A stretch of 61,500 nucleotides of DNA, the filler included, from Sphacelaria rigidula (Eukaryota): assembly GCA_964200075.2 (NCBI GenBank). It is 8 parts of 8 records of this genome, joined end to end, with 100 filler letters (N's around TTAATTAATTAA, not from the genome) between each part and the next. Parts side by side here need not be neighbours in the genome. Positions count along the whole stretch, not along the records: positions 23,101 to 30,700 come from CAXNAA020014154.1; 7 more parts are not named here. The stretch is one strand, 5' to 3'. This document shows, in pieces, positions 1 through 50,600 of this stretch. The translations under genes were made by a program, and so were the position numbers. Below the pieces are notes generated by a model. It made no database searches. It saw nothing but the letters and a program-made list of their open reading frames with translations, and was not told the DNA's origin. How positions within the stretch are numbered: position 1 is the stretch's first letter; every line of letters starts with the position of its first letter.

Positions 1-274
1 CGGCTGATGCGCCCACATATACCGAAAGGTGTAGACTGGTGCCCAGAATAAATGGGACGACAACACAACACACTGCTGTGCACGTTTCATTCGTGCATGA
101 GTCGTGCTGTTCGGTCGCCAGTCGTGCTCGCCTGTGCCATGCCGTCGAATGGCGCAGACAACATTTCCTTCCATGTGTGTCCCCATTTATTTTTCACCGT
201 GAAACTACGGGCTTCAGGATCCCTGAGTGTGTTCGGGGCGGTTTGTTGTGTTGTTCGTGTGGTCAAATCTACAG

Positions 275-3200
275 GTCTTATCGGGATTCAACAGCATTGT
301 CCTCGCCCGCGTGAACGCCCACAGTGACGTGGAGGAACTAAAGGCTGAGTCTTCGGTACCGGTGATCAACGCCCTATCGGACTTGCATCACCCGCTGCAA
401 ACGCTTGCCGATCTCATGACGATAAAGGTGATCGCCATTTTCAAGGCGGTTGCGAGTCCGTGCCCGAACCCGACGGCGGCACCAGGAGAGAGCCATACTG
501 CATACTCACGCGTTCAACCATTCAACTGCGATGTGGTCCTTTTGAGTTCACGTGTGCCAATAGACCACGTTGTATATCGAGTTTTTTAAACGACTGTACT
601 GCAGTATGAGAGGGGTCCCAAACGCTTCGCGGTCACTGGCTTGAGACCAACAATTTTGATCATACTGCTGTGGGTAGGACTGGCCACAAAAGTGCTACCA
701 CCGTGTTCCGTCCTGATTGCATAGCCTACCTTGAATGTCCATATCTGGCATCTGTGTTCTTGACCCTCGAGCCGAGTGCTTTGCCTCGTTGTAGTTTACG
801 AGTAACGCGTAGCATGGGCAAGGAACATCACATGTCGTCTCTGATAAGAAAGAATATTCTCAACATGTAGCAGTGTTCATATACAATTGAAATGTTCTGC
901 TCAATAAAAGACGGAAATTACATACCCACTGGTTGGACCAAATTTTTTACAGCGCTGTTCAGGACAGTTTGCTCATTTTTGTGTTTTACACAGGCCGAAG
1001 ACACGTTCAAGCTAATCTTGCTTTTTACCGGTCGTGCGTTGCCAATGCCGAAATAACTTTTTAACAGGAACGATTCGGGAAGCTGGAAGGTTTGACGTTC
1101 ACGTGGGTAGGGGATGGGAACAACGTACTGCACGACCTGATGCTAGGCTGCGCAAAGCTCGGTAAGTCGACAGCCAGCCCAAATGCGTCCTTAGGTCTTC
1201 AACACCTTGACACTCACCCGCGAAATAGGTAGAGCAGAGCATCATTGTCGGGGAATTTGGACGAACTCAGTTGAAATCAGCCATCGGTCGCCTGGATAAC
1301 TTGGCCCTCGCGTGCCTGGCGACGATCAAGGGCGTACCTCTCTCCTGATATCATGCAGTTTTCATGTGCAATGTTTTCCCGGCTATTTTCCCGCACGTCG
1401 CCGTTACAGCCATGAACGTACGGATTGCTACTCCCGAGGGATACCGACCAGATCCGACTATTGTGGGAACGACCAGCGATCTGGCAAAGGAGAGCGGATC
1501 GGCGGTGTTCATCACGGCGGATCCCGCAGAGGTATGAAGCGGTCAGATGGGGACGTGAACATAGTTGTGCCAGGTCACTTTGTCACGTTAACCCTTTTGG
1601 AACTGAAGCTCAGTAACAAGGGGTTCACCATATATTTGTCAAATGATAATGAACAAGTCTCGGAGCGACCTGCCCAATCATGGCCAAGCAAAAGTTATCG
1701 ACCACATCCAAGCGACCAGTGGGGGGGGTCTGTCGCCGGAAGGGATGTCACTGCCAAGTTTGTGTGTGTACCCTGTCCCTGGCCCACGAAAAAGCCTTCG
1801 AAGCAATAGAAATCTGCGATGGTGAGGGCTCGCTTTCCCGATTTTTTTCATTGTTTACTTGCATTTTATTCAGGTTCAACCCCCACTCCCCCGATTTGTT
1901 TTGGGTCACCATCCTATAGTAAAACGTGGTTCATTACACTAACACGGGGTGCTCGGGGGAAATTCGGGGATAAATTTACCCCACTATTTTTACGGCCATG
2001 TTCACAAGGAGACTGAATCTAGCAACTTAGTGGAACGACAGACGGCGCTAGAGGCATGAGTTCTGCGTATCCCTCTGTTGAGGCGGTACATCATGTAGTG
2101 AGGTCGTATGTGATCGACGGGAACGAACAGGCTGTGTATAGGTAGCTGATCCCCGTCGCGGAGAACTATATAAAACTTGTAAGGGAGTATGCAGCGGCAG
2201 CTGCTGCCGCAGTCGGAGAGGCGTGGGGTACTGTATGTGCGGCGCAAAGCCCATGCCCTTCGAAGAGAATCTGCCGCTTGCAACGAAGAGGGAAATCGCG
2301 ACCCACTCCGACCACAAAGGGCTGTGTGGCAAGGGGATGGGGACAAAAAAAAATCCAAAGCCACAAGTGGCGGGCAGCGGTCGCTACGTCCTGTTGAAAG
2401 CTCTCCACGGCGACTCATACTGCTCGATAAATCTGTACATTACGTGACGCGCACAACACCTGACTTACAGTGTGTACCTGCACTTGAAAATAAACGGAAT
2501 GAAACTTTCGGTCTTTCTAATAACCTTGTGGTTACATACATGGATTTTCAGTAACATAAAGCCACTGTCATCTATTTCGTGTAGACGCCAGACACGTCAT
2601 TCCCAACCAGCCTCATTGGTCGTTGTGAAGACTTGGTTCCAAAAGGGTTATTTGGTGAGCTGCCAGTGCCTACAGGATGGTTCACCGTCATCACCTCAAG
2701 AATATTTATCTGCAAAACTTCACGCCGTTGTTTAAAGTTGAGAACCTGATTTTTTTCACGAATGTGTCATGGGTTACTACAAAACCTCCGAAGAACGAGT
2801 GTTTTTCGAACGTCTTGATATTTCACCGGTATTCGGGGATCCCAGGGTTCTCGGGGACCTTGGACCCCGGGGGACCCCCGAAATCGGGTGAAAAAAACAG
2901 GGGGTAGAGGAAAACATCTATCGAAAGTTTTTTCATGACCCGCAGTACATGTGCGCAATAATATCATGGTCTAACTCCTAAAAATGGCCTGAATTTTTGC
3001 GCTTTTGTGCGATGAAGTGAGCGTGCAAGCTTCTAACTACTCGTCTCTTTTGCGTATGTTGAAAAACCTGCGTGAGGTTTTCGAGTTTCGCAACCAAACT
3101 TCGTACGTATAGGTTCCTTCGACAACCCCGGGACGTGTAGAGTATTTTTTTTGTTTGAGGCATTCAGTACCGCCTTCCGCGGGTGTTCACGCTGGACCCC

Positions 3201-5265
3201 CGGGAGTCGGCAAATAATGGAGAAATTTTCAAATATTTTCAAATAATTTTTTGCATTTGGAGGACTAATGCCAACGGAACTGCGAAGTTTGAGGGCGATC
3301 TAAGCTTTTCTACGATATAGGTAGGGGAAACCATCGGGAGACTCCCTGGGTCTTTCGTGCGTACCATCAGTGGAGATCTGACGACACCAAAACCCTTATC
3401 ACCGACATGCCGCGGTTTGGGGTATAAATTGATCCCAGAGTAACCGTTTTGAAATATATTATTTTCCGTTGCATTCCCGAGCTGGGGGCGGCTACTGCGA
3501 TGTGAGCTATGTGGAGAAGGATACATATTGCGTTGAGAATTCCTATTTTCGATTCCAGGGCATTTTAAACGGCGCTTATTGGTCGAGGCACCTTTTGTCC
3601 TGAGCACCAACGCTATGACCTTCAACACAAATGGGGCTATGTCAACATCCTTGTTGACTACTGTCAGTATGATAGCATGTATGCGACTATGGGTAGGTAT
3701 TGCGGAAGACATTTGCTGATGAAAGAATTTTGGGTGATGAGCGTTAACCAGCCTGTATCTGAAGTCAACGAAGCGCGATTCTGTGTATTAAAGGCGCGCG
3801 TTTCACAGGGTCTTGTTCGATGCACTTGGAGGCATCATGGTCAAGTTGGAGGGAATGCATCCACACAATCTTTGTTCTAAGAGTATACTATCGTTGTTGC
3901 CTGTCGTGTTGTTGCGCATCCATCATGGCTGAACTTGTCTCGAGGCTGTTGCCGGGGCGCATATCGTGGCCACGGACACGTGGGTAAGCATGGGACAAGA
4001 GGAAGAGGCGGCGAAGAGGATCAAGGATTACGAAGGCTATCAGGTTAGGCCCAAAATTTCTGCACTCTGCAGCACCATGGTACGACGCTTAGCGCGTGCT
4101 CTAAGGCTGCCCTGATTGTTGCCCCCCTACCCCGTCGTCCCCGAGGTGATGTTTGTCGGTCTATATTCTCTCAATTGGGTAGGTTTATGAAGCAGAGGCA
4201 GTTGTTGGCATTTCATTTTACTAATTGGTGTCGCTAACCAAAAATAATCGCACGATCAAAATGACGGGAGTGCAAGCAGAAAACCCCGAGAATCGCGAGT
4301 CCTTGCAAACCCCGGAACCCTGGTAATGGCCCCGGAACCCTTCAAGAGATGATCATCGAGGTGCCCATGGAAGCAAAGGGAGTGGTTTCTAGGGTGTGTG
4401 CACTCAGGGAGACTAGAAAAACCTCATGGCCCAGGAAGATATTGACAGTGACCCTTTGCTGGGTCTGCAGGGGTGCAGACGTCAAGAAGTGAATACAAGC
4501 AGACGAAGGGGGCCTGCAAACGTTCCAGTGTACTCGATTCCCCCCCCCCCCTGAAGAAAAGTGGCGAACAGGCAAAGGAATTCAAACGTGTGCATGACAT
4601 TTTGGTCGACTGACTCACCGCTCCGGACCTCACTTGCCTCCGTCTGCCGCTGACAGGTAACGGAAGCCCTGATGAACAAGGCTCAAGATGATGCCGTGTT
4701 CCTGCACTGCTTGCCCCGGCATAAGGAAGAAGTCGATGATGAGGTTTGGACAAAAATTTAGCGAACACGATTCTATTTTGAAAAGTTGTGTCATATCGGG
4801 TTTGCTAATTCGAGGCTGCTGGCGCTGTCTGGCTTTTGTCGTGTTTCGCAGGGTGTTTGGTTGTACGTCCGGTAAATAAACACATCCCACGGTGAACGCA
4901 ATATATGTGCATATTATTTGTATGAGCCACGATGTTTCTGGTGATATTGCGTTATTTAGCCTCGTGTTTTCCCTACATATCCGAAATTTCAACGGAACCC
5001 CGTTGTTTGTGCTCTTCGCTGATCCCCCACGCGTTTGCAGCAGGACGCGAGCAATTGCGCGGATATTATAGCACGTGCGAGAAGCAGGATGGCTTGTCAT
5101 TTACTTGTCCGCTCTTGTCTTCGTGTTGCCAAACTTTCGTCTGGAAATATTTCGGTTTTTCTGTGGCCGCAGGTTTTCTACTCGGAGCGGTCTCTCGTCT
5201 TCCCGGAGGCGGAAAACCGCATGTGGACCGTCATGGCTCTCATGCAGTCCCTGCTGGGGAAGTGA
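275..5265 (+). CDS. OTC: Ornithine carbamoyltransferase, 3' six exons (5' part outside fragment)
   Basis: Exons 275-427, 1068-1161, 1410-1531, 3945-4043, 4657-4743 and 5173-5265 join in frame via GT-AG introns. The product carries OTC motifs [39 protein letters not shown] and EAENR, ending at TGA 5263-5265. Confidence 0.96.
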
Positions 5266-7700: not shown

Positions 7701-7771
7701 TCCGTCCCGGCATTGTAGGGATGCGAGGTCAATGATCTTATGACTATGGCATGCATGATCACGAGTACACC
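7701..7771 (+). repeat. Structured short dispersed element, copy A (5' truncated by spacer)
   Basis: CCGTCCC...GGGATGCGAGGTCAATGATCTTATGACTATGGC...GAGTACACC matches the copies at 12638, 15876, 22771, 24041, 30611, 48632 and 49964. Confidence 0.8.
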
Positions 7772-7862
7772 TATCTCCAGAAAGGCCGCGCCACCCAAAA
7801 GTCGCGCCCCATGAAACGGCAGGTGGGGACAAACTGTTCTCATCATTTATATCATCAGAACA

Positions 7863-8228
7863 GAAGGTGGGGAACATGTGCGTATGATTCACGCTGCATA
7901 AGTGAAGAATGAGAAACATGTGCGCTTGATTCATCTCGTGTGAATCGAAGGTTGGGAGCATGTACGTATGATTCATGCTGCATGAACGGAAATCGGGGAA
8001 CATGTACACTTGATTCATCATCGTACAAATGGAAGGTGTGAAACATGTGCGTATGATTCATGCTGCATGGGCGGAAATTGGGAAACCATGTACGCTTGAT
8101 TCACCTCGTGTGAATGGAAGATGGGAAACGTGTGCATGATCCATATTGAATACATGGAAATATGAAAACATGTGCCTACGATTCATACCATACGAATGGA
8201 AGGTAGGAAGCGTGTACCTTCGATGGTG
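7863..8228. repeat. 42-bp minisatellite with alternating A/B units (84-bp dimer), ~9 units
   Basis: (A/G)CATG anchors at 7874, 7916, 7958, 8000 and 8043. Units alternate ...GTATGATTCATGCTGCAT and ...CTTGATTCATCTCGTGTGAAT. Confidence 0.85.
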
Positions 8229-9382: not shown

Positions 9383-10550
9383 TGAAGCAGAAGATATTTC
9401 GTCTCGGGTAGGAGGCACCGTATCTTTCTTCATGGTAGAGGTGGTAAATATTTCCCCTCGTGAAGGAGGCATCTCTCCTGTGGATGAGGCATGATATCTC
9501 TTCTCATGGATGAGGCATGAAGTAACTCTCTTGTGACTGAGGCATCAGATGTGTCTTCTCGTGGATGATGTGATATTTCTCTTCTCGCGAACAAGGCATC
9601 AGATATCTCTTGTCATGGATGAGGCATCAGATTTGTCATCCCATGAATTAGGCATAATAATTTCGTCTCATGGATCAGGCATTACATCTCTTCTCGTGAA
9701 TGAGGCATCAGATATTTCATCTCGTGGATGAGGCAAGTCATCTCTTCTCGCGAACGAGGCATCAGATGTATTCTCTCATTGCTGAGGCACTATATCTCTT
9801 CTCGTGGATGAGGCACCAGATATGTCTTCTCGTGAACGAGGCAGTATATCTCTTCTCGTGAATGAGGCATCAGATATCTCCTCTCATGGATGAGGCATGA
9901 TATCTCTCCTCGCGAATAAGGCGTCAGATATTTCATCTTGTGAATGAGGCAAGATATTTCTTCTCGCGAATAAGGCATCAGATATTTCCTCTCATGGATG
10001 GGGCACTATATCGCTTCTCGTAGATAAGGCATCAGATATGTCGTCTCACGAATGAGGCATTATACCTTCTCTCGTGGATCAGGCATCATATATGTCTTCT
10101 CGTAAATGAGGCATTATATCTCTTCTCGTGGATGAGACATGAGATATCTCCTCTCATGGATGATGCATGAGATGCATGTCTCGTGGATACGGCAATATAT
10201 CTCTTCTCGCGAACGAGGCATCAGATATCTCTTCACATGGATGAGGCATCATATATCTCTTCTCATGGATGAGGCATAAATATTTCGTCTCATGGATGAG
10301 GCATTATATCTCTTCTCTCGAACGAGGCATGACATAGTTCATCTCGTGAATGAGGCAAGGTATCTCTCTCGCGAATTAGGCGTCAGATATATTCTTTCAT
10401 GGATGAGACATCATGTATCTCTTCTCGTGGATGAGGCATCAGATATGTCGTCTCATAAATGAGGCATTATACCTTATCTCGTAGATGGGGCATAAGATAT
10501 ACATTATTGTAAACGAGGCAGTAGATTTCCTCTCGTGGATGATGCTTAAT
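9383..10550. repeat. Minisatellite of 26+28-bp units (54-bp higher-order repeat), ~40 units
   Basis: GAGGCA-like anchors at 9730, 9756, 9784, 9810, 9838, 9864, 9892, 9918, 9946 and 9972. Consensus GAGGCA(TCAG/TT)ATATCTCTTCTCGTGGAT. Confidence 0.93.
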
Positions 10551-11014
10551 GTATCTCTAGTTGGAGGCAGTGATCTACTCAGAGGGCATATCTCTACTCG
10601 GTGACACCCGTTGAAAGCATAGGGTGAGCGGGTAGAGAAAAGATGCGACTCCTCACACAATCTTCACAGTACTACAGTACAGTGTTGCGGTTGTAGCACC
10701 TTCATCACTCGCACTGCCTTCAATCAAACAGTGAGCTGGCTGGATGTCCCGGCCGCCGTTCTACATGCCTGCTTCTACGTCTGCCTACCACTCTTTCAGC
10801 GTGCTAAATGACAATCGCTTCGATGTTCGGTATGGCGACATAGACATTCCAAGCTCTGAGCCTTTCATCTTATGCTCGGCGTTCGTCATCTCACATGTAT
10901 TATGATTCATGTGTGGATTTAATTTAATTCAATTCGGTGAGTAGAAATTTTTTCGCTTCCATAAAGCACATATTCCCTCGATTGGGAACATTCCGTCTTA
11001 CTGTGCAGCCTTAA

Positions 11015-11893: not shown

Positions 11894-14294
11894 CGTCGTC
11901 GTCGTCGTCTTTACCCGCTCGCATATGAAACGAACCCGCCGTTCTCATATGAATTTACCCTAGAACATCGAACCGGAATATTTTGCCCTCCCTGCATGTG
12001 CAGTGGACATCAATCACGCATCTCTCGTGACTGTTTCCATGCCCTCCGTTGGGTTAGACCTTGCAGGTGAACACGCACATATCCCCCGTTGTGTTTCTCC
12101 ACGTCGCCGTTTTGTATGTCTTGCGTCGCACGATTGTAGTTGTTCGGGGTTTGCGGTGCCGTGGACGTCATGCTGGCGCGCAAGGCCCTTTCCGCTGTGC
12201 CGCCGGTGAATGGGTCCGCTACGACGACCGGCGCATCCCTTGTGTCTTTCAATCCCAAGGGTAACGGCTTCATGATGATGGAGGCTGTCGTGAAGGCGAT
12301 GCCGCACGCTCGGCATATGATCATGTATCGGGATGTCCGAAAGGTGAACGCCAGTACAGTTGCCCCGGGACATAGCGAATATGCATTCTCCCTGTTTTTG
12401 GTACAGTCAACAATCGGGAAGCACTTCATCGTAATATGATGGTTCGGGACCCCACAACAGCTCGATGATTATTGAGGACCCATTCTCCTAGTGCGCTATT
12501 TTTCATCCAAGAAACCTCATCCTGTTCTACCGGGAGGTGATTGTGCTGTAGCGTGATCGGTGGAAGGCCTACTTTTTCGCTGCGCTACTACACGACAGCC
12601 CCTCCCTCCTGTTATGTTGGTTCAGCGGAAACCCAGCGTGCTTCGTCACGGCTCCGTAGGGATGCGAGGTCAATTGTCTTGTGACTACGGCATGCAAGAT
12701 CATCGATACAACCTGCTATCTTGCGAGGTGTAGCTTCGTCTTCCTTGAAAAAGACGTATTCAGTGGCATCATTTCATCAGGTGGTCGACTCGACTTTTGT
12801 GTGCCTACTTCGGGTACGACATGGATAGCAAAAAGTGTCTTCGCTATTCTTGGTGATTCATCAGCCAGTACGCCTGGCGTCTGCGTGTACCGCAGCACGC
12901 GGGCCGCATTTTCATGTTCACAGGGAGCAAGGGTGTGGTCGCTTGACGAAAGGAGGAGTTTGCACTCCGTACGCACTTGCAGTGTTCTGCTCGCGAGCCT
13001 CTTTTGTTAACATCGGACCCAACTTGCCCACCGCCACCCCCGTTCGGCAGGTCGCCGAGTCCTTCTGCAGCATTTTCCACCAGAATTCGTCGGGAATGGG
13101 CAAGGTGCGTGTGCGTGCGTGTCGTTGTAGTAGGGCCAAGGCGTGGATGCTGTCGCGTATGTTGACGTCCGGTCTGTACAGGTCAGAAGGAAATAGAGAA
13201 AGAGGAAGGTCGTGACCGTTCACACGGAATTAAATTTGGGCCTAGCTCGACCAGTTCACAGCATTCTTTGCTTGCGCACTTACTCCTGTTGCTGGATCTT
13301 TCTAAACGCTGCGGTTTCGTCTTTCGTGTGCAACCTCCATGTGTCTCGTGACACAAGCTGTGGGCCATGCTCCCTTGGGCGAGACGACCGGGTCCTCCAC
13401 CCCCCCGTGGTGACCGGCCTCTTCCCACGTTCAGCAAGACTATGGCAGAGGTAAGATAGGACTGTCCCCTCAGCGTAGGGCCTCTCAAGGCTCTGGAATC
13501 GGTGAATCAATACAGAGCTTAACACCAGAGCGGTATAGAGAATGTTGTGCGATATGTGCCGTGGACAGCGTACTAACAACAACTGGCTTCTACCACGTCG
13601 GCGTAACATTTGATTTCAGCCGAACGAGGAAGATTTTCGTTCGATCAGCGCAGGTCCGCTCTTGTACGTGTGATATCGACTGTGTGTGTCGTGTTGCGGT
13701 TTCATCCGTGGATGTCGCGGTACCCAAGGATTTCGGCACGGGCTAGCATTCTCGTCATCATCTCTTATCGCCGCCGTCTTTCTTGTTGTCAGGCTCCATT
13801 CTCACTGCCCGTGGAGGCCTGCTCACTCGTTGTTTGACGCAAGCAAGCGCTACTTCGCTCTCTTGTCCGATGTCACACCCTCACAGCCCATCCATCTGGC
13901 GTGTGCATGACGTACCCTCACATACCCACAATGTGGCGTGTGCATGGCGTTTTTGAAACGTCGAGCTCCATCGTCACAATAGGATCACTCAGGGCACGAC
14001 TCGCGCGCGACCGTCGTGTTGGGTCGCAGACTGGTTGATTCTTCGTTTTATGTCGCCTCCGTGCTTTCGCCAACTTGTTCATTTGTGACATGCTATACTT
14101 TGGGGTTGTGAAAAACACAACGCGTACATCAGGTGCAGGCATCGGGCTTGATTGTAAAGCCTTCAAAGATAGAGCCGTGGATGGTGACGAGGGACTGGAT
14201 GGAAACGATGTGCCTGTGGCAAGAAATGCTAGCGTCCGGCGTTATAGGGGAGAAAGGCACCCTGGCTCTCAGGATGGAAGACTACATTCGGAAG
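11572..14294 (+). CDS. Sulfotransferase-fold protein, internal exons
   Basis: Exons 11572-11677 (MLQKVGVLSFSEPYW), 12140-12343 (..MPHARHMIMYRDVRK), 13051-13104 (VAESF..) and 14133-14294 (..LALRMEDY), all GT-AG. SEP, P-x-A-x-x-x-x-x-Y-R-D..V-x-x-S and R-x-E-D resemble PAPS-dependent sulfotransferase motifs. The 5'-PSB exon was not seen and the exons between 13104 and 14133 are unresolved. Confidence 0.6.
11861..11910. repeat. (TGT)n(CGT)n compound microsatellite
   Basis: Direct inspection. Confidence 0.95.
12638..12713 (+). repeat. Structured short dispersed element, copy B (intronic)
   Basis: GTGCTTCGTCACGGCTCCGTAGGGATGCGAGGTCAATTGTCTTGTGACTACGGC. Confidence 0.75.
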
Positions 14295-15473: not shown

Positions 15474-15875
15474 TTCACGTGTACTCAAGCTAATTAAATA
15501 CGTTTATGTCTGTGTGAAGCCATTGAAATGGGGGATTGGAAACGGGTTCAACCCTCCGATCGGCGGCGGAGGAGGCAATTTGTTAAATCGGCATGGTTTT
15601 CAAATTGAAGATAAAGTGTAAGGCTCAGATGACCCACCCTGGCGGTCGAGGGGTTGAGCACAAAAACTTGTTCCAGATTACCAAAGGTGTGTCGGGTAGT
15701 GTACTTCTTACATTCGTGTATATAAAAAAATCGAACTGTAACTACCCAAACCTTGGGGTAAAGCATTAAGATCGCACTCGACAATACCCAGATATTGGAT
15801 AGAGTATTGCGATCGACCCTAACACTACCCAACATTAGCGTAGAGTTTGGAGACGGACCATCGCGACGCGAAATT

Positions 15876-15975
15876 CCGGGGGGGGGTGTACTCATGATCA
15901 TATATGCCATAGTCATCAGACCATTAGCCTCGCATCCCTACAAAGCCAGGGCGGAGCACGCCGGGTTTTCGCCGG
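15876..15975 (-). repeat. Structured short dispersed element, copy C (CCGG at both ends)
   Basis: Reverse strand CCGGCGAAAACCCGGCGTGCTCCGCCCT...AGGGATGCGAGGCTAATGGTCTGATGACTATGGC...GAGTACACCCCCCCCCGG. Confidence 0.8.
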
Positions 15976-16213
15976 ACCAGGCTCTCACTCAATCACCAAG
16001 CGCAAAGCGCCGTGGTGTATTCGCGAAATTCCGGGGGGGGGCGGGGGGGGTGCATGCCCGGGTATTTACCCTTTTCAACACAAGGTTGCAGATTACGGTA
16101 GAGGGGGTGAAACTGCCCCTGTTGGAGGTTTTCGTGGGGTGACAGGGAGTGGGTGAAACATCTTACGCGTGCGGCATGATAGAACGACCCGCAGCATTCG
16201 AAAATGTCGTGTA

Positions 16214-22770: not shown

Positions 22771-22855
22771 CGGGGGGGGTGGAGGGCGTACTCCTTTGCT
22801 GCTCGCCATAGTATTTTGACCATTAGCCGCACATCCCTTTTGAGACGGAGCACCG
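22771..22855 (-). repeat. Structured short dispersed element, copy D
   Basis: Reverse strand GTGCTCCGTCTCAAAAGGGATGTGCGGCTAATGGTCAAAATACTATGGC...GAGTACGCCC. Confidence 0.75.
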
Positions 22856-23880
22856 TTTCCTGCTCCTGATGAAGATATCTCCAACTTGTGGGCATTCATT
22901 ACGTATTTTCCATGCACTACGAGGAATCCGCTGGCATATCTCATTCCCTCCCTGTTTCGCCGTCTGTAGCCGGTATCTATCTCCCAGTATAGCGATCTGT
23001 NNNNNNNNNNNNNNNNNNNNNNNNNNNNNNNNNNNNNNNNNNNNTTAATTAATTAANNNNNNNNNNNNNNNNNNNNNNNNNNNNNNNNNNNNNNNNNNNN
23101 CCCGGCTTGGTGGGGTGGGGGGACGAGGGGGTTGGTCTTTTGTCCATGGGGTGCCAGGTCTAGAATACCCCCCCCCCCCCCCCCCCCCCCTTGTGCCTGC
23201 AGAGGGGGGATGGCATTTCCGCGCCCAATGGAGCTCGATGACAGTCCTCGGGACCCACGACTATTTTCGCTTGTATGTTGTCCGATGGGTCGTTTACCAT
23301 GCGTCCTCGAGTGTATTGAAATCTTGACTGTAAATGAGGAGCAATCACACATCAGCCCCCATCGCCACAGTCCTTCTGAAACTGTGGTGATCAAGTGTCC
23401 GTCGAAGACTTCGTGCTCGGTATATTTGTGGGCTCTCTCGACAGTGTATGGCTGTGTCGAAACGACGGTTGGGATACCCTCGTGGGTGTTTATTCCCACG
23501 ACACGTGCAGCTCCGTGATATGAGGTAGATTTGTCTCAGTTCGGGGCTCCAATATATCCATGGTTGACACATTTTGTCCAAGATAACTCTAACCGTAATC
23601 ATAACACCCCAACCCGAGGCGTGGAACGGGGCATGTCAGCCAGCGCTGGTACTTGTTTTGCAGCTGAAGCCAGTGGCATATGATGGTGCAGCAGGTCAAT
23701 CAGGAAATGTACAGGTCTCGTTACACGAAGAAATAGTTATTTCACAGGAAGATATCCCGCCAACACCCCCCCCCCCCACCATATTCTTTGAGAGCCTCTC
23801 TGTTGCTCGTTTGTGTAATGGGTTGCTGTTTGTGCCCTCACGATATTGCTGTGCGTGACCCCTGCAAAACGTCAACGCAG

Positions 23881-26043
23881 GGCCCTGATCAAGTCATATG
23901 GGGCGAGCAAGGGGGGAGACAAGATTCAGAGGAGCTCGGTGTTGATAAACAAGGAAGGAAAGGTTGCGGCCGTCTGGAACCCGGTGAGTACTGTATGCAT
24001 TTTTTGTCTTGGGATTTCCTTGTTGTGAGCGAGGGCGAGAGGGGGGGGGGGGCGTACTCATTTGTTGTTTGCCTTAGTCATTTGACCATTGACCACGCAT
24101 CCCTTTCGAGACGGAGCACTGAGAGGGGGGGGGGGGCAATCGCAATGTGTTCGAAATCGGAGTTACAGAGGTGAACTTGGTCTCAAGTTTCCAAGGTTGT
24201 GTTCTGTAGGATATGAGATTCCTTACACTTTCAGATATATCGAGTACCGGTTTGAAAGTCTTATAGAAATTACAGAACTTGTTGGGTACGGTTTGGTAGG
24301 CTTACAGAAACCGTATCGGCAACCGGGTATTTCTTCAAGGGCATACCCGCGCTCCGGGCACGTGTATACATTATGTGTGGAACTCACAGGAACTTTTGGG
24401 TAGGGTACGGAGTTCGCACAGAAAACCGTACCCCGCAACCGGGTATTCTTATCAAAGAGCATACCCTCGCCCCCCGGTAACGGCATGGGAGGCTTACATA
24501 ACTCACAGAAGTATCGGATAAGGGTATGAAAGTCTTACGAAGATTACGTAACTGTCGGGTACCAGTATGGAAGTCTTCCATATGTCACAGAAGCGGCAGT
24601 ATATACTCGGAAAAATACCACGGGCATCCTGAAAATCCTACCCTAAAGAAAACAACCTTGGTATCATCATCACCCCTGTGGTGGGACCTACGTCACTACA
24701 GTGGCGAACTACAGATGACAGTTCATGAACACTCTGAACGGCTTCGCGGGGTCGACAGAGAAGGACTACACGAACACTCGCAGTAGTACATGTGCACGGG
24801 ATCGTCAATATCCATCAGCTTCACGTTCAATCCCAGAGAGTATGTGACGGAGCTTTCACGGCTGCCCGCTCTCTGGACGCTCTTCGGAACCACAAAATCG
24901 TCGACAATCTTTACTTCCGGTGGCAACTCATACTCTTTGCCCTGCATGCTGATACCTGCCTGAGGTTCGATGACCACGACACAACCACCGTCAACGTCGA
25001 TGACCTGCGCAGTGCTACTTGATCCCCCTGGTGGCGCAGATGAACTGCCCCCCGCTCGAGCCACCTTTCGAGTCTGGGGGTGATCCATCCTTACGATCTG
25101 CAGTGCTGCTCATGTTTCGTGTTTCCACTCAGCAGGACCTTGTACCCTGTCGGATTCCAAGCTAAAGAACTTTCCAACTTCAGATTATATTTTTGTTGGT
25201 GTCGTAGTGTTGAATAAAGTAGTAGGGTGGGTTGATGAGAGGTACATGTCGAGATCAGGAGGTTGTGTTTCGATTGAACCTGTATCCATACCTTCCCAAG
25301 GTATATGCATATCTGTGCTCGTATCTGCAATCGTGTATTTCTACAACGGTATACCCTGATCCCGGGTAGAGGTATGGGAGGCTTACAGAGCTTCCAGCAC
25401 TGTCGGGTACCGGTTGGAAAGTCTTGCAGAAATTACAGAATTCGTCGGGTACGGCATGGAAGGCTTGCAGAAAACCGTACCGACAATCGGGTATTCTTCG
25501 AGGGAATACCCGCGCTCCGGTTTCGTGTAAACATTTTGTACAGAACTCACAGAAACCGTCGGGTAGGATATGGAGGTTGCACAGAACACCTCACCCCCAA
25601 CGGGAATCTTATCAAGAGCATACCCTCGCCTACGGTAACAGTACGGGAGGCTGACGAAACTCACAGAAGTATCGGGTGAGGGTATGAAAGTCTTGAAGAG
25701 ATTACAGAACTGTCGGGTACCGGTATGAAAGTCACACAAGTGTCGGTCGGGTACGGTACATACCCGGTAAAATACCCCGGGTATACATGATAACGTCCCC
25801 TTCAAAACACAACCTTGCAAGTTTCAGTAAATGTAGGGTTAATAGTTTGTTCGTGAAGGCGAGAAATTTCCTGTTCACAACAATTATGCTGACTTCTTCC
25901 GTGCGTCCCTTTACTTTCCCTTCCTCTCCTCTCCTTTCCTTTTTTCGTATTTTTTTGTTTGTGATGACTGGTGCCCGATGCAGGTCAAGGGAGCGGAGCA
26001 ACACCCGAATGAGGTTCTGGCGAAACTCAAGGAAATGTCATGA
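23881..26043 (+). CDS. PRXQ: Peroxiredoxin Q/BCP family, last two exons (copy 1)
   Basis: Exons 23881-23983 (ALIKSYGASKGGDKIQRSSVLINKEGKVAAVWNP) and 25984-26043 (VKGAEQHPNEVLAKLKEMS*) match the BCP C-terminal pattern R.TF.I.K.G....W..VK...H..EVL. Confidence 0.82.
24041..24120 (-). repeat. Structured short dispersed element, copy E (intronic)
   Basis: Reverse strand GTGCTC-CGTCTC-GAAA-GGGATG-CGTG-GTCAATGGTC-AAAT-GACTAAGGC-AAACAACAAAT-GAGTAC. Confidence 0.85.
24192..25817. mobile_element. Compound hAT element: two direct ~450-560-bp MITE-like units flanking a cargo ORF
   Basis: Perfect 12-bp TIR CAAGGTTGTGTT/AACACAACCTTG and perfect 8-bp TSD CAAGTTTC (24184-24191, 25818-25825). Internal right-type TIR ends at 24660; a left-type TIR-like motif is at ~25259. 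Confidence 0.9.
24723..25088 (-). pseudogene. 121-aa ORF inside the hAT element, possibly a transposase N-terminal fragment
   Basis: ATG-initiated ORF ending near YYCEC, reminiscent of the start of a BED finger. No catalytic domain visible. Confidence 0.35.
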
Positions 26044-30551: not shown

Positions 30552-30610
30552 GTAAGGGGAAATACTCGTTTTTTGGTTCTTCGCGTGTCGTAGATTACCG
30601 GGGGGTTGGG

Positions 30611-30663
30611 GAGGGGGGGGAGCGTACTCATTTGTTGCTTGCCTTAGTCGTGTGACCATTGAT
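30611..30663 (-). repeat. Structured short dispersed element, partial copy F (another start at 30690-30700)
   Basis: G-run + CGTACTCATTTGTTGCTTGCCTTAGTCGTGTGACCATTGA, closely matching copies E, G and H. Confidence 0.8.
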
Positions 30664-31284
30664 GGTTGGGGAGGGGGGGAGGGGGGAGGGGTGTACTCAT
30701 NNNNNNNNNNNNNNNNNNNNNNNNNNNNNNNNNNNNNNNNNNNNTTAATTAATTAANNNNNNNNNNNNNNNNNNNNNNNNNNNNNNNNNNNNNNNNNNNN
30801 GCCAATCGGGCCCGTCCCTGCAGGGACCACGCCCCTGACCCTAAACACGTAACACTAACCCCAATCATAACCGTAGGGGTGTTCAAATTTCGATGCGGTC
30901 CTCTAAGCACGCGGTCCTCTCATGCATTACACCGATGACCTCAGATGCCGGAAGGCATTTTTTCGAAAATTGTCCTGATATTTTCTTTTCCCCATCAATT
31001 TTGTTGCAAGCAATTGATCAATAAACACTGACAAAAATCGAAAAGTCTGGTGGGCTTTGCGGGGTTTATGTACAATTTGATTCTGCTCCTTGCCCGCTCT
31101 GTCCCGATGGTCTCAAGTCTCCATGCCAAGGATCTCTGTCCACGGCAGCTGACCGCATTCGCCAACGCTTCGGCAATAAACTAGGGGACAGACGGCTGGG
31201 TGCCCCCCCCCCCTCCCCCCCTCAAAAACTCGAATTCTCGATATTGGGGCCTAGATGTCCAGTTTTGTTTTTTACACTGCCCCC

Positions 31285-32900
31285 TGCTCAAGCTTATGTC
31301 CTTTGACTACTTTGGCCCTGTACCGACCACAGGTGGCGGCAACACCTACATCTTACTCTTCACTGACCGCTTCAGCCGCCACGCGTCCATGCACGCGGTA
31401 ACCTCCGCAGATTTCGCTGCCCCCGGAACGGCCGACATATTGGTCCACGACTACATTAAGCATTACGGCTGCCCAGAGCAACTCCTGTCAGACAATGGTC
31501 AGCAATTATGTTCCGATCTCTCTGATGAGCTTTACAAGCTCCTGGGCATCCGCAAATTCGTAAGGAGCGCCTACCACCCGAACGGTAACGATGGTACCGA
31601 AAGAGTTAATCACATCATGGCTCAGATGCTCCCTGTAGTTGTCCATGACCGCCAAAATGATTGGGACCTACACCTCTCGCACATCATGTTGTCCTACAAC
31701 AACTCGGTTACCGCCGCCACAGGCCTTTCTCCAAACGAACTCCATCTTGGGCGCTACCCTCGGCTGCTCATCACCGTGTTTGAGAGAAGCACGTTCGACG
31801 GCCACCAAGGCTTGGATCAGGATCAGATATCCTACTACGAGCTAGCGCATGCACGACAACGCAAAGTGTTTATCCTCGTGCGCGAACAACACGCTCTCAA
31901 CGCCTCGCGCCTAGAGGGATCCAACACTGCTCTCTACAACCTCATGTAAAAATACCCCAACTGGAACCTTGGTGATTGGGTTTGGATCTGCAACAGTTTG
32001 TCGACCATCCACCAAGGTACCAGCAAGGCAGCCAACGAAACAATTTTGAGGACAAAATTGTCCTTCAATTGGACAGGACCATTCAAGATCCTGACAGTCG
32101 GACCATTGCCATCATCACCGGATGATGAACTCGTTGGTGACAAACTGCTCTATCTCGACTTGCCTCGCGACTTCCAGGGCAAGGACCGCGTCTCCGTGCA
32201 CAGATGCAAACCCTGCACAAACCCGCATGATACAAGTGATATGCCCAAGTACGTGCCTGCCGGACTCACACAGTATGTTCTCAACAGCTACTCGACCAAA
32301 TCCCCGCCCTAACAAGTTACCACCGACGACGTAACGGAACAGCCCCTCCGATGTCCTCCATCTCCGGCCACCAGCTAGACCGTGGTCGAGGTGGAAAAAT
32401 TGCTATCATGTATAAGATCCACCGGCACGGTCTTCGGAAAGCGTCTTGGAAACGCGAATCCGACCTTCGATTGCACCGCCGTGCAATCCTCCTGTACTGG
32501 ACGCAATCCCAACATCAGCATCTTGCTCACGACAAGAAGTACCGCAACATGCGTCGTGGTGCGGCAGCCCGCGAACTTCACCGCGATCAGGGACTACGCT
32601 TCGTCGCCGATGGTTACGAACTTGTACCCACCAAGACTTGTAAGACGAAGTTCTTCTCAAACCAGCGAATACTGCCCAAGGACAGCTACCTTTGGTTCAA
32701 AGGCAGCGACAACCGTTGGTGGTTGGGTCAGACCCACTCCGCTAACCTGGTTTCTGCCGACACATACATCGTGTGCTTCATCCATGACCCTGGACCCATA
32801 CAGCCAAGCTCCGGCCAGCACAATACACCACCAGCCCATCTGCACCACGCGGGTCCTGGTGCCTCCAGCGCCTTAAGTCCAAAGGACTTCGCCGCGGTCC
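31285..32900 (+). pseudogene. Gypsy LTR-retrotransposon pol 3' part: integrase + GPF motif + chromodomain + PWWP/Tudor-like domain (disrupted)
   Basis: DYFGP..TDRFSR, LLSDNG, YHPNGNDGTERVN (DDE) and WTGPF. In-frame TAA at 31947 and 32310, frameshift near 32345. Confidence 0.92.
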
Positions 32901-46055: not shown

Positions 46056-47635
46056 AGAAGTGCATGATTTTGGGAGGCAAAATCTTCACGTAAATCGAAA
46101 NNNNNNNNNNNNNNNNNNNNNNNNNNNNNNNNNNNNNNNNNNNNTTAATTAATTAANNNNNNNNNNNNNNNNNNNNNNNNNNNNNNNNNNNNNNNNNNNN
46201 CCTGGGAAGGGTTATCTGGGCCAGGGATAGGGCCCCACACGATATTTGCAGTGGCATCGCATCCGACAACAATTCCCGCGCTGGTCGTTCGGGTCTGGTC
46301 AATGAATTTCGCCTCCCTGTGATTGGGTAGGTCGCTCGAAGACTTATTTTTTATTATTCCACTAACACAGGGTCAACCCTGTGTTAGTGGGGGTCCGGTC
46401 CCAAAAGAGTTAAAATAGCGTGGAACTGCCCTTTACTAAAATTGGAATAAAATGTAGCCGGTTACCGCGAAGGTCAAAGTCACCACTTCCAGTTTGAACT
46501 GCAATCTTGACTGATCCACTTCACTCTTCATGCTCTTGGAAGCATGGGGAGGCGCGCGTGTGGGGAGGGGGAGGGGGGGGGGGGGGGGGGGGGGGGGGCT
46601 TGTTGGGGGGGGGGGGGGGGGGGGGGGGTANNNNNNNTACGATTACTAGAGGGGGATGATGGATCTGTTGGGTTGTACTATGCGATTTTGGGGGAGGGTG
46701 GACGTACGAGGCGACGTATTGAAGCAGTACAACTCTCCTTAGGCCGTGCCTTGTTGAGACAACAACCAGCACGGAGAGGAACCGAGGAACCGAGGAACAA
46801 GAAGAACGTTCATTCGTCGGCTCGGCATCACCCCCCAAAAAACTAAATAAGCGGCGGCATTTTCTTCTGTGGCAGCGGGGCGTTATGAAACAATCATCTT
46901 AGAATTTTTCAGGCTATTCGTCAAGACTTTTTTGGGATGTTCGCCATTATGGGCGTAACATGAAGCAGCGGCGAAATGACCCTTGCTTTAGTACACGCCG
47001 TCACACAGCCCGGACCCAAGGCATGAGCTGCATAATTTTTTCATCTCACCGTCCCAGCATAGGAAATGAAAAGCTCGAGCCGTAGCTATTGGTTGACTGA
47101 GTACAGCGTTTTTAGTTCGGGATAAATCGGTCCAAAATTGGATGAGACACGATGATTTCTGTCACACAGGCGCCGTGCAACAAACCAACAAACGGTCAAC
47201 GACTCCATCTCGAGCACGTTTTGCTGCACAAACACCATTGACCGTCGTCCAACACCGAATGGATTGCCGTGAAAGAAAGAGCACTGTGCATAGATGAGCA
47301 AGAGCTAGCACCAGGAGCGCTGCGCTTGTGCCGTGGATGTCTGTGCTTGTTTGCTTAGGCTGTGCTGTGAAGGTGTAACGTGTTTCAGTCATGCTCGTTT
47401 AAATTTCCAGACCGTCTACGACTACTTCCAGTGCGGAAAGAATCACAGCTCGTCCCGGAACGCCAGATTCGTGATTTTTCGTGTTCTGTGTGCCGGCAAC
47501 TGCATGGCTTTGTTTCTCTTCGTGCTGGTGTTTCTTGTCTCGGTGAGACACGGCCTTCGTGAAGCTTGCGCCAAGAATAATGGCGAGCAGCATTTGAACA
47601 GGGTCCAACTCCCACTTATGCGTCAATTTCCGAAC

Positions 47636-50600
47636 CTTATCGTAGAGCTCGGTCTTGAGATAGTACAGCGCCTGCCACACGACGTACAAGGCAATCGATG
47701 TCATCACATCTCCGGCGTCGACCCCTGCTGTGCACTCCGGCTCTGCACCCTCCTCCCCACCCCTCAGCGTGTCGAGGGGACACCAGCGCAGCGTGAGCGA
47801 CAACCAACCCGGGAACAGGTGGATATAGCATGACGTCATCTGGGTATGGAGATATACGCGCGGGGAGGGACAGTACAGATGTCAAATACCATATATACAC
47901 TTCTTGAAAAAATAGGAGCGCATTTTGGCGTCCTCGCATTTCGGCATTGATTAGGTCCTCTAGTCCGCCAAACTAATCACAAGTATTAAGACTGCAGCGA
48001 AGGAGCAAACAGAGGACGGATATTCTTTGCACTGATGCACTGCCTGGGGGAAAAAAAAGGTAGTCGGCGGCAAACACGGCATACCTTATCGACGTCGTGA
48101 AACACGAGGCTGTTCCTCCAGAGAGGCACCGCCCAGCACAACGGCCCCATGCTGTACATGAAGATGATCTTCTGAAGCCTACAATCGTGCGGCAATAGGA
48201 AGATGCCAAGAATGCAACACACCTGCTCGTTCGCGACCCCGGGTGTATTCGGCAAAACAAGAAAAAAATGGGGCGCGGTCAGTGACGCATTTTGAAACAC
48301 ATGGCGTTTCAGCTGCACTTGAAGGCGCAATGCGGCTGACGACGCCATGCTTGCTACCGCTGTACATCACAAGCTATCAACGGAATCCGAATGTTGTGAT
48401 GTTGCGACGAATCACAGCGCTTGATTCCATTCGGAAGGTGGGATGTTTAAGGGGAGAGGCAAAAACGTGGGGGGGGGGGGGGGGGGGGGGACTATTTTTT
48501 TTCTTCCCTCAAGTGGGGGGACCATTTACTTAAGCCTCCCCCCCGAGGCGAACAACGNNNNNNNNNNGCATTGAGAAGGGTAACTGAGGAGGTTTAGTGT
48601 GTGCATTGATGGGCTGGGGGGGTGGGAGTAAGGGCGGACTCATTTGTTGCTTGCCTCAAGTCGTGTGACCATTGACTTACGCATCCCTCTCGAGACGAAG
48701 CACCGCGTTGTGTGGAGGAGGGGCCGGAATAAATAAGGCGTAGTCATTATTGATTGGACACATCATGTTGGCTTCTACGGGGCGGTGTCGTCGACTGCAG
48801 GAGAAATAACGGTCTATGCCCTCCCCAAGTGAACAGGAGCATCGCAACAAGAGAGCGGCCCAAACTACTGCGAGCTAGTTATCTCCTGTGTGTATAACCC
48901 TTGGTGGCTGGGTTCCTTCCCAACTGTACACGTCGGCGAAACCAAAGAGCACCTGCACGTAGTAGCAGAAGTCGAGGTAAAAGAGATGCCACTTGCGCTG
49001 CACGTAGGAAGGGTACCGCATCCCGAGCAGCACGGGCACGATAACCGAGTACCACAACCAGAACCTTTCGGGTATTTCCAGCAGCACGTACTCGCTCACG
49101 ATCATGGTCAACACCTGCTCCGCAAACCAAAACACATGACATCCACGCAAAACGAACTTCCAATCAATGGATATACAGCTGATCAGGACGTGATACGGGT
49201 GAGCCATGCAACATGTTGGGCTGGGTGAACCACATATACACTTGCACGGTAGCAGCGGCAGCGGCACCTTGACCCTTAGACGGCGAGCAGGTCATCTGTC
49301 AAATCAGCATAAATTTTACTTGCAAACAGAATGCATGGCCCAAATGGACTTCCTTCGCGGTCTAAGGGTTAACTGGCATTGGTGGGCTTATCTGACGATG
49401 CCCTAGGCTATGTTGCTACGGAAGGATTTTATTTTCCTTCAGTTCAAGACAATATAACCCAGACAACAGTAACAGCAGGGAGGGGATGAACGGCGCAGGT
49501 GAGAATACGGTAGACCATGCAATGTACTTCACGAATGTAGCTCTCCTACCCCTCTTATTTGCCATATGGTGCTCGATTTGTTCTTCCAGGCACAGCCTTC
49601 ACACAACGTAGCTTCGCATACATCCAAGCTTCCTACGGTATATGTAGCAGCTGTAGCAACAGGGCAATCTGTTCCACAACACCGAAACCCTAGCGAACCC
49701 TGCCTCTCAACACCCTCTCCCATCGACGGCAGGGCTAGACTTACCCCGACGGTGAACGCCGCCTTGTCCATGAGGCGCATGACCGGAGGCTTGCTTCGTG
49801 TCTCTTCCAGATGTAATCGGACGCTCTTTTGCGGATCGCCTGTCACGACCTGTGACCACAAGAACATCAAAATAGGCAACGGGATACATGTCCATGTATA
49901 TACACAAGATGGGAAAGCACATGCAATCAACACACGGGAGACACGATGTTACATGCCTGATTTCCGGGGAGGGGTGTGTGTACTCATTTGTTGCTTGCCT
50001 TAGTCGTTTGGCCATTGACCACGCACCCCTTCCTGTTTGAAGCACCGCTCCTACTCCCCATATAGATACCTCCAACATTTGGGCGCTCATGACGTTTTAT
50101 ACATTACACAACGTTCTACATATCTTGACCCTTCCTGTTTCGCCGCCTGTGGCCACAATTTATTTTCTCATGTAGCGATTGTTTTCTCGCTACTGTCCAA
50201 TGTAGCAAACGATTTTAGGCCACCTTCGTTAACTTGGGTGAGGGGGGGCAAGGAAGACAGAAGCGAAGGAAGGACAAGACACGGCGGGATGGGCGAGATA
50301 AAACAAAAACAAGATTTGTTTTCAGAAGTATTTCGTAGCAGTAGCAGTGCAGAAATCGTCAGTTTGAAAGTGTTTGACTCAAACTATCGACGTACGCAAC
50401 CGAAAGAGCATATGACCAACAGCCTGATGTGCCCGTTCTCGAGAACTCGATGTTCAAAGGTAAAGGCGAGGCATAACCACCAAAACATCAAGATAGCGAA
50501 AGCAAAAAAAAGCTACAAGATCCAAAAATTAGGAAGGCGACGACGACAAAACCAACGAGCCATAGCACTCGAAGGCGCATGCCTTTCATCGTTGGTGCGA

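Follow-up and report, generated by a model that had tools for sequence, protein, structure and literature searches.

A dispersed ~70-nt repeat of Sphacelaria rigidula is the 3′ end of a LINE that inserts at C-runs and shares its tail with a short partner

Introduction

The long interspersed nuclear elements (LINEs) of the RTE-X group, as annotated in the brown alga Ectocarpus, and the pairs of a LINE and a short interspersed nuclear element (SINE) that share one 3′ end are the closest described counterparts of the repeat that is analyzed here, a short sequence dispersed over a 61.5-kb stretch of DNA from the brown alga Sphacelaria rigidula (GCA_964200075.2; the whole stretch is called the window). 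A preliminary description of the window, made from the sequence alone, had regarded the repeat as an element of 70–100 nt with a fold of three helices (P1, P2 and P3), and had suggested either a tiny mobile unit that is recognised in trans by its RNA structure or a self-cleaving RNA. We find that this '70–100-nt element' is the 3′ end of a LINE, because the open reading frame (ORF) of the LINE runs through the repeat unit, called the module below, to a TGA stop codon inside P1′, the 3′ strand of P1.

In the accessible parts of the Ectocarpus transposable element annotation, seven LINE/RTE-X families with 16,418 copies are described (Genome Biol 2025, PMC12477816). The supplement characterizes RTEX-1/RTEX-2 by a 'single EN-RT ORF; (C)n 3'' or by '(C)n termini/TSD', with a 'C-rich' TSD (EN-RT, endonuclease–reverse transcriptase; TSD, target-site duplication; PMC12477816). 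The most abundant family of the Ectocarpus genome, RTEX-N1, is a non-autonomous element of 607 bp that has 60 bp of its 3′ end in common with RTEX-1/-2 and 'can be present in tandem', and RTEX-N2, of 188 bp and with a similar tail, 'could be SINE' (PMC12477816). Among the LINE families in these parts of the annotation, (C)n or C-rich is given only in the RTE-X rows; the RTE row has (CAA)n, and the CRE row has (CA)n together with an RT-EN order (PMC12477816). It was also described, in the available part of a second source, that 'stringent' LINE/SINE pairs share a 3′ end that is presumably recognised by the reverse transcriptase (PMC3747384).

The LINE that contains the repeat

In metagenome contigs, one scan for relatives of the module, based on a degenerate 29-nt pattern, gave two loci (L001 and L002), and a scan of prokaryotic genome contigs gave one (L003), which lies on a 5.3-kb contig binned into a bacterial metagenome-assembled genome (MAG). 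In viral contigs there were 0 loci by pattern and 0 confirmed relatives by protein. L001 and L002 share ~190 nt or more upstream of the module, and this likeness extends to copies I and D of the window (Table 1). This shared stretch belongs to the end of an open frame and encodes a Cys/His motif of the type that is typical of the C-termini of LINE ORF2 proteins.

L003 is a full-length relative of ~4.2 kb, of the kind that the preliminary description had proposed to look for, namely a long element with the same end that encodes a reverse transcriptase. It contains a single ORF of 1382 amino acids (113–4261, minus strand), in which an Exo_endo_phos domain (residues 193–415, E 8.1e-11) is followed by an RVT_1 domain (residues 763–1012, E 6.7e-32), and its best PDB matches are the human LINE-1 ORF2p and R2. 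An endonuclease upstream of the reverse transcriptase in one ORF is the arrangement of LINEs with an apurinic/apyrimidinic endonuclease (APE-type LINEs). The 66-nt module is the last 66 nt of this ~4.2-kb LINE. In L001, L002 and L003 the ORF continues through the module and its TGA lies only 3 nt from the element end, with the module overlapping the last 22 codons and the stop. A second APE-type feature is a common 3′ end together with 5′ ends truncated at varied points, and the lengths found here are ~44, 66–68, ~240, at least 213 nt and ~4.2 kb. This spread does not agree with a unit of 70–100 nt as first proposed: in the window alone, copy F has ~44 nt, copy C 135 nt, copy D at least 213 nt and copy I ~240 nt.

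A search of a protein collection with the last 147 residues of the ORF returned 20 longer proteins. Those with a name belong to two brown algae, Ectocarpus sp. and Sphacelaria rigidula, except for one that is named after a bacterial MAG. The peptide encoded by the module forms the C-terminal end in 9 of the 20 relatives and its start is present in 17, and some of the 20 read on into a Pro-rich translation of the C-run that follows the module. In 9 of 9 LINE relatives, the last 22 residues are conserved at least as well as the preceding 60 (16–22 of 22 versus 36–59 of 60; one is tied at 82%).

Some observations on these relatives stand apart. L003, on a contig of an 'uncultured bacterium' MAG, and protein P0004, named for a Parasphingorhabdus MAG, are brown-alga-like LINE sequences in bacterial bins; the MAG of L003 contains this single copy only, and the presence of both sequences in such bins is probably binning contamination. 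In the LINE ORF (protein P0021), residues 1–190 form an N-terminal part before the endonuclease that has no Pfam match, for which an RNA-binding module is one possibility. Upstream of the LINE in L003, at 4740–4800 in the minus-strand reading, a degenerate module-like stretch lies in the opposite orientation and does not reach E ≤ 1.

Copies of the module in the window

The window consists of 8 pieces of 7600 nt and is not one continuous DNA; between neighbouring pieces there is a 100-nt linker, in which N's surround a ttaattaattaa stop block. A covariance model was built from five copies with the structure of the preliminary description and was run on the window and on L001, L002 and L003. 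It gave 11 matches (E 1.7e-26 to 3.4e-4), which are the three loci and eight places in the window on the strands of Table 1. Three more window matches at E 0.1–0.95 were treated as chance. BLASTN of the two metagenome copies against the window led to the same eight places, while the 36-nt core is expected 0 times (100 shuffles). The eight copies on four fragments that had been described from the sequence alone are thus all recovered by both methods, with E ≤ 3.4e-4 in the covariance model, and they are confined to four of the eight pieces. A further candidate near 48479, the degenerate copy J (60%), stayed above E 1 in the covariance search and was left out of the count.

All copies share one 3′ end, GAGTAC plus one base, whereas their 5′ ends vary. 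The two subfamilies that had been noticed before were also recovered. In subfamily 1 (D, E, F, G, H, and I) the P2 loop is 4 nt long and the linker is AAGCAACAAAT; in subfamily 2 (A, B, and C) loop and linker have 9 and 12 nt, respectively. Copy E is 98.7% identical to the LINE tail of L001 (BLASTN, 75 nt) and its translation equals the last 19 residues of the LINE ORF. In the longer copies the ORF is decayed: tblastn matches the C-terminus of the ORF in two frames in copy D, which is a frameshifted remnant, and copy I has a stop and a frameshift in its remnant and a destroyed P2.

Table 1. Copies of the module and their flanking duplications in the window (CM, covariance model; positions count along the whole window)
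Feature	Position	Strand	Evidence
Copy A, subfamily 2, 5′ side cut by piece start	7701..7768	+	CM 28.1 bits, E 1.3e-5
Copy B, older subfamily 2 unit, 5′ end approximate	12585..12710	+	Alignment with C; CM 23.4 bits, E 3.4e-4, partial
Copy C, complete 135-nt subfamily 2 unit (~63-nt head and 72-nt module)	15887..16021	-	CM 41.2 bits, E 1.7e-9
Copy C TSD, perfect, 20 nt	15867-15886 and 16022-16041	-	Exact repeat by script
Copy D, LINE 3′ end (≥213 nt), runs into piece end	22788..23000	-	CM 84.9 bits; BLASTN 76-77% to L001/L002 over 217-226 nt
Copy E TSD, 3′ copy: 12 C then TCTC, 16 nt (17 with preceding G)	24037..24052	-	Exact repeat by script
Copy E, module-only insertion, 66 nt and 1 extra base on each side	24054..24119	-	CM 96.8 bits, E 4.7e-26
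Copy E TSD, 5′ copy	24121..24136	-	Exact repeat by script
Copy F, ~44 nt, 5′-truncated inside P3, in C-rich flank of copy G	30620..30663	-	Exact 16-nt flanking repeat
Copy F flanking repeat, exact, 16 nt	30604-30619 and 30664-30679	-	Script
Copy G, last 8 nt of module visible before piece end, then C-rich stretch	30693..30700	-	Sequence reading
Copy H, older, near module-only, 2 inserted bases	48636..48705	-	CM 57.6 bits, E 2.2e-14; BLASTN 82-88%
Copy I, old LINE 3′ end, ~240-257 nt	49980..50236	-	BLASTN 79% over 248 nt; tblastn up to 50236

Insertion at C-runs

Exact repeats of the 3′ flank were sought by script upstream of each copy, and six copies (B, C, E, F, H, and I) have both flanks visible. 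Perfect flanking repeats were found in three of these six, with 20 nt in copy C, 16/17 nt in copy E and 16 nt in copy F. Duplications of such variable length are what is expected of a LINE, and the preliminary suggestion to define them could be followed for these three copies. The duplication of copy C is made of nine C followed by GGAATTTCGCG. Each duplication starts with the C-run, and in copies C and E the C-run has the same length on both sides. We conclude that the C-run is target sequence and not a tail of the element, because the duplication begins with it and its length is equal on the two sides. A poly(C) tail was rejected on the same ground, with further duplicated bases following the run, and the C-run is no longer part of the element as it had been drawn in the preliminary description. 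Copy F is inserted in the C-rich duplication beside copy G, and this pair illustrates how insertion at a C-run beside an older copy gives head-to-tail pairs.

Long runs are also present elsewhere in the window. G-runs of tens of bases at 46546–46630 and 48451–48491 adjoin two small assembly gaps inside one piece (N at 46631–46637 and 48558–48567). Runs of this kind are the targets that the LINE prefers, and the assembly probably breaks at them. As a separate observation, copies A, D and G all reach the ends of their pieces.

A short partner with the same tail

Copies B and C share ~60 nt upstream of the module and apparently the same starting base, and these ~60 nt have no likeness to the LINE. 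When subfamily 2 is compared to the LINE, the likeness covers the module only (77–87% identity over 39–62 nt) with nothing upstream of it. The 9-nt P2 loop, which is 5 nt longer, shifts the LINE reading frame and early stops follow; since the frame is broken, the conservation in subfamily 2 acts on nucleotides. Subfamily 2 is thus a non-autonomous unit of ~135 nt with a tail borrowed from the LINE; in the window only C is complete, and A and B are partial or old.

A head derived from an RNA polymerase III transcript, as in a SINE, was not found. No Rfam family reached the gathering score in the window and ARAGORN gave 0 tRNA genes, so neither a tRNA-, a 5S- nor a 7SL-like head was detected and a tRNA-like head can be rejected; around copy C the permissive search at E ≤ 10 gave a single chance-level microRNA match. 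In the available parts of the Ectocarpus annotation, the authors left the origin of the heads open for their own families as well (PMC12477816).

Fold and conservation of the tail

The preliminary description read the fold in one orientation, and this agrees with the energies. The sense strand of copy E folds with −18.4 kcal/mol, compared to −8.9 kcal/mol for the antisense strand, and its minimum-energy structure is the three-way junction (z −2.42, energy matched by 2 of 200 shuffles). The isolated copy D gives the junction as well, with −21.9 kcal/mol and z −2.84, while the antisense z values are +0.82 (E) and +0.84 (C). The junction does not hold for the other copies: C, B and I (z −1.39, −0.99, and −0.57) have other minimum-energy structures and are no better than shuffles. 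The fold range of copy H lacked its last 4 nt, which makes it an unfair test.

Pairs were counted by a hand-segmented script and on a model-fitted alignment, as MAFFT alone misplaced the loop insertion of subfamily 2. By hand segmentation 16 to 20 of the 21 pairs form in nine full modules (16 in copies B and I, 19 in copy H). In the alignment of 11 sequences, which are close relatives (10 distinct) and were fitted to the structure, 89.6% of the cells are paired versus 23–50% with slid partners. The stem changes are pyrimidine exchanges opposite G, which keep G-C or G-U, or mismatches in old copies. The stems persist as was claimed, and they seem to do so because the sequence is conserved. We regard the P2 and P3 hairpins as plausible, and the closing helix P1 as plausible in the isolated module only. 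The conservation of subfamily 2, together with that of the C-terminal 22 residues relative to the 60 before them, points to a constraint on the tail at the nucleotide level.

Copies in public sequencing runs

Contigs of four public runs (X1, X2, X4, and X6) were aligned on positions 1–4400 of L003 at 85% likeness, and between 4,753 and 91,477 pieces matched in each run. Public runs that contain piece 4 of the window are labelled 'algae metagenome' or with a coded organism, and none of those listed is recorded as RNA. Since parts of a gene cannot be ranked by contig depth, the depth was taken as a hint of 3′ excess only; the counts of X1 are incomplete, and X6 was guessed as RNA, so that its contigs over the module carry no information on expression. 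In the two bins of the LINE 3′ end the summed depth is 3.6–3.7 million in X1, 3.0–3.3 million in X2, 1.2–1.3 million in X4 and 0.21–0.22 million in X6, compared to a maximum of 0.68, 0.59, 0.45, and 0.017 million, respectively, in any other bin. The 3′-end bins are at least 2.6 times any other bin. Many contigs leave the LINE past its 3′ end into plus-strand G-runs, which are C-runs in element orientation (loose ends: X1, 1,410 + 390; X2, 1,422 + 378 + 350; X4, 671 + 285; X6, 91 + 45 + 52 + 25).

A second place of exit lies at the first bases of the module (place 173), where contigs pass from the LINE into a C-run (378 in X2, 315 in X4, and 60 + 31 in X6). This hotspot was seen in three of the four runs and is not among the exits listed for X1. 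The best-supported joints, with as many as 33 contigs each, lead from the end of a C-run to the module start, 73–81 nt back. Units of the module alone and head-to-tail arrays of ~79 nt are common, as seen from the many contigs that exit at the module start and the joints that return to it.

Discussion

Comparison with known elements

The LINE of the window resembles RTEX-1_Ec32/RTEX-2_Ec32, as far as these are described in the available parts of the annotation, in its single EN-RT ORF, its C-rich TSDs, the C-run at the 3′ end, a very high copy number that is mostly made of truncated copies, and its brown-algal host (PMC12477816). It differs in size: the consensus of RTEX-1/-2_Ec32 is 5.5–5.9 kb, whereas the part of the element that is defined in L003, its ORF, has ~4.15 kb. 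In the same way, subfamily 2 is similar to RTEX-N1_Ec32/RTEX-N2_Ec32, with a head of unknown origin, a tail shared with the LINE (60–100 bp in Ectocarpus), a C-rich TSD (20 nt here) and sometimes a tandem arrangement (PMC12477816). The comparison is by description only, and the unit of 135 nt is shorter than RTEX-N1 (607 bp) or RTEX-N2 (188 bp). Based on the single EN-RT ORF, the (C)n 3′ terminus or C-rich TSD, and the 66–72-nt tail shared with a short partner, the LINE most likely belongs to the RTE-X group as in Ectocarpus.

A LINE and a short partner with a common 3′ end that contains hairpins are also known from eel UnaL2/UnaSINE1 and from Bov-B/RTE-derived SINEs, according to the accessible part of the source (PMC3747384). 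In these pairs the tails lie in the 3′ untranslated region and end in a short tandem repeat, and some of their stem-loops are backed by compensatory changes or assays (PMC3747384). The brown-alga tail, unlike those of stringent-type pairs, overlaps the end of the ORF and lacks both a repeat tail of its own and support from covariation. In the parts of the literature that were available, we found no statement in print on an RNA structure of RTE-X tails, on a three-way junction or on an ORF end inside the tail, by searches that were not designed to exclude one.

LINEs of the R1/Tx1 group reportedly target microsatellites, as Kojima and Fujiwara are said to have described in 2004. A simple-sequence target is common to them and to the LINE studied here; the R1/Tx1-group elements belong to other clades and have di-, tri- or tetranucleotide targets, unlike the edge of a mononucleotide C/G run.

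Weighing of the LINE tail against other explanations

From the ORF that ends in the module, the common 3′ end, the duplications and the shared tail, we consider it highly probable that the repeat represents the 3′-terminal 66 nt of an APE-type non-long-terminal-repeat retrotransposon (LINE), most likely RTE-X, which is accompanied by a ~135-nt partner with the same tail. Of the unit that was first suggested, the mobility stands, the RNA strand does matter and the role in trans comes close to the likely role of the LINE tail; what does not stand is the object itself, which is the 3′ tail of a LINE and not a unit of its own.

Several points speak against this reading, in whole or in part. Exact TSDs were not found by the script for the older copies B, H and I, three of the six testable ones, and for A and D the duplication cannot be judged since their 5′ sides are cut off by the ends of the pieces. 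The named Ectocarpus proteins are only 58–69% identical over the LINE C-terminus, and the RTE-X assignment was made from the features given in the annotation table. The hotspot at the module start and the ~75–81-nt arrays are not explained by random 5′ truncation alone. Other points regard the fold. In a 236-nt LINE RNA context P2 and P3 are still predicted, while a similar sequence further upstream takes up the 5′ strand of P1, and the whole stretch has no stability beyond that of shuffles (z −0.07). Two-sided changes occur in 0 of the 21 pairs, and the observed covariation score was reached by 500 of 500 shuffles, on 10 distinct and closely related sequences; the 11 pairs that RNAalifold retained lie in P2 and P3, and its covariation term is +0.09. 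With no covariation and with P1 lost in the longer RNA, the recognition of the tail by the enzyme, as we infer it, is not supported by the fold. The covariation in P2 and P3 that the preliminary description had made a test of its fold did not appear, and we take this null result on few and close sequences as absence of evidence and as weak evidence against a structure.

These results on the fold also bear on the question of what the tail is conserved for. One option is that it is conserved only as code for the C-terminal 22 residues and that the RNA fold is incidental. The ORF does cross the module, 16–22 of the 22 residues are kept in nine relatives, and the lack of compensatory changes and the loss of P1 in the longer context are what such a tail would give. 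Yet subfamily 2 keeps the nucleotides despite the 5-nt frame shift, the early stops and a ~63-nt head that is unlike the LINE ORF, the one-sided changes in the stems that are neutral to pairing are all exchanges of pyrimidine to pyrimidine opposite G, and in its conservation the tail equals or exceeds the coding sequence next to it. For these reasons we find conservation as code alone unlikely.

Another question that is raised by the survey is why so many contigs leave the LINE exactly at the module start. The module might also exist as a discrete small RNA, a minimal retroposon made of the recognition tail only, with a precise 5′ end that would come from its own transcription start or from RNA processing (possibly by an unclassified self-cleaving fold). 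The LINE enzyme would copy it in trans, giving solo units and ~79-nt arrays at C-runs across the genome. If true, it would be the smallest known retroposon, nothing but the recognition signal of a reverse transcriptase. The hotspot in three of four runs and the joints that go back 73–81 nt fit such an RNA, and so do copies E and H, which are module-only (E with a perfect TSD), and the isolated module, which folds as a closed three-way junction with z of −2.4 to −2.8. The same arrays are obtained without a special RNA when an insertion takes place in the C-run beside an existing copy, as in the G/F pair; other points of truncation exist (~44 nt in F, ~240 nt in I); and the hotspot is not among the exits listed for X1, where counts are incomplete, while the RNA labels of the runs are guesses. 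We regard a discrete small RNA as improbable, and somewhat more so than conservation as code alone.

A further step from this would be that the module forms a new class of self-cleaving ribozyme, with the cleavage site at its 5′ edge, where the hotspot lies. HDV-like (hepatitis delta virus-like) ribozymes occur in R2 and RTE-type elements and offer a precedent, and the compact junction fold with G-U pairs is seen on one strand only. Against it, removing the tail from its own mRNA would disable the LINE, no pair covaries, and the Rfam searches give no support. In the window, no Rfam family, whether ribozyme or other, reached its gathering score. Under permissive filters (E ≤ 10), only three unrelated chance matches were obtained for copy E and one for copy C (CRISPR-DR56, PART1_3, Mn riboswitch, and mir-8512), and the hammerhead, HDV-like, twister, twister-sister, pistol, hatchet, hairpin and VS models had no covariance-model match in these two copies. 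The preliminary description was right that the repeat resembles neither the hammerhead, HDV-like and twister ribozymes nor a tRNA; its suggestion of a self-cleaving RNA finds nothing beyond chance matches, and we hold such a ribozyme for very improbable. A hammerhead had also been considered from a CUGAUGA string and was rejected, since the string occurs only in the P3 loop of copy C and in neither A nor B.

A miniature inverted-repeat transposable element (MITE) or another DNA transposon in which P1 would be the terminal inverted repeat, for which only the small size and the imperfect 6-nt repeat GTGCTC/GAGTAC at the ends could speak, has practically no probability left, since the module is continuous with an EN-RT ORF (which already refutes it), the TSDs of 16, 16/17 and 20 nt have no fixed short length, truncation is found on the 5′ side only and at different points, and the 'inverted repeat' holds a G-T pair that is unpaired as DNA on the other strand. 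The single-stranded DNA and HUH nuclease options do not fit either, given the variable TSDs, the differing points of 5′ truncation and the lack of inverted repeats beyond 6 bp.

A possible mechanism

For the LINE tail and its short partner we can suggest a mechanism whose steps are drawn from target-primed reverse transcription, the established model for APE-type LINEs. A G-run, which is a C-run in element orientation, would be nicked by the endonuclease at its 3′ edge on the bottom strand, and synthesis of complementary DNA would be primed from this nick on the last bases of the RNA. Reverse transcription would often stop early and leave 5′-truncated copies, and a staggered second nick 16–20 nt downstream would create duplications that start with the C-run. 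The reverse transcriptase probably recognises the tail, by its sequence and/or by the P2/P3 hairpins, and any role of the fold would lie at this step. Such recognition would account for the mobility of the short partner, whose RNA may be copied by the enzyme in trans although its head is unrelated. As for the hotspot at the module start, we favour a defined abortive point that could be reached as the enzyme leaves the recognised tail, and nested insertion at C-runs may then build the head-to-tail arrays. As the ORF ends at a TGA that is 3 nt from the element end, the tail would be coding sequence and cis signal at once.

Significance

The repeat is the tail of an ordinary LINE, of which annotations of brown algae already contain the kind; neither a tiny element nor a class of structured RNA is newly found here. 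On its own the repeat has little importance, as a family of a catalogued brown-algal kind of LINE (RTE-X, C-rich targets) with a non-autonomous partner. Two features are worth a look by specialists, the module-only hotspot and the overlap between the tail and the ORF end. Since the probable recognition tail includes the final 22 codons of the ORF together with its stop codon, one 66-nt stretch may be under both protein and cis-RNA constraint. The excess of tail-only copies points to an early, defined abortive step of reverse transcription or to a discrete small template RNA, and insertion at the edges of mononucleotide C/G runs duplicates these runs, which favours nested head-to-tail arrays. 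For annotation, units of ~70 nt of this kind should be masked as LINE tails and not reported as new structured RNA.

Other features of the window

A 770-codon open frame in the window matches a RAI16-like family and GT-AG-like intron borders are visible, which indicates eukaryotic DNA. Tandem repeats of ~42 nt (84-nt double period) lie at 7830–8215, directly downstream of copy A, and a family of ~41–83-nt repeats, dispersed or tandem, with 5–6 copies at 60–81%, extends over 24228–25744, downstream of copy E on the plus strand. Piece 2 contains a long array at 9400–10560 of ~54-nt tandem repeats (27/28-nt half-period; 8–22 copies, 60–88% identity), which is unrelated to the LINE tail. An open frame at 31185–31949 (+) has a weak match to rve, an integrase core (E 7.8e-7, below the Pfam cut-off), and is probably a remnant of a long terminal repeat retrotransposon or of a DNA transposon. 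At 52697–53263 there are inverted repeats with 163-nt arms, 81% complementary and 48 nt apart, together with related 125-nt direct and inverted copies; this structure looks like a foldback or MITE-like element.

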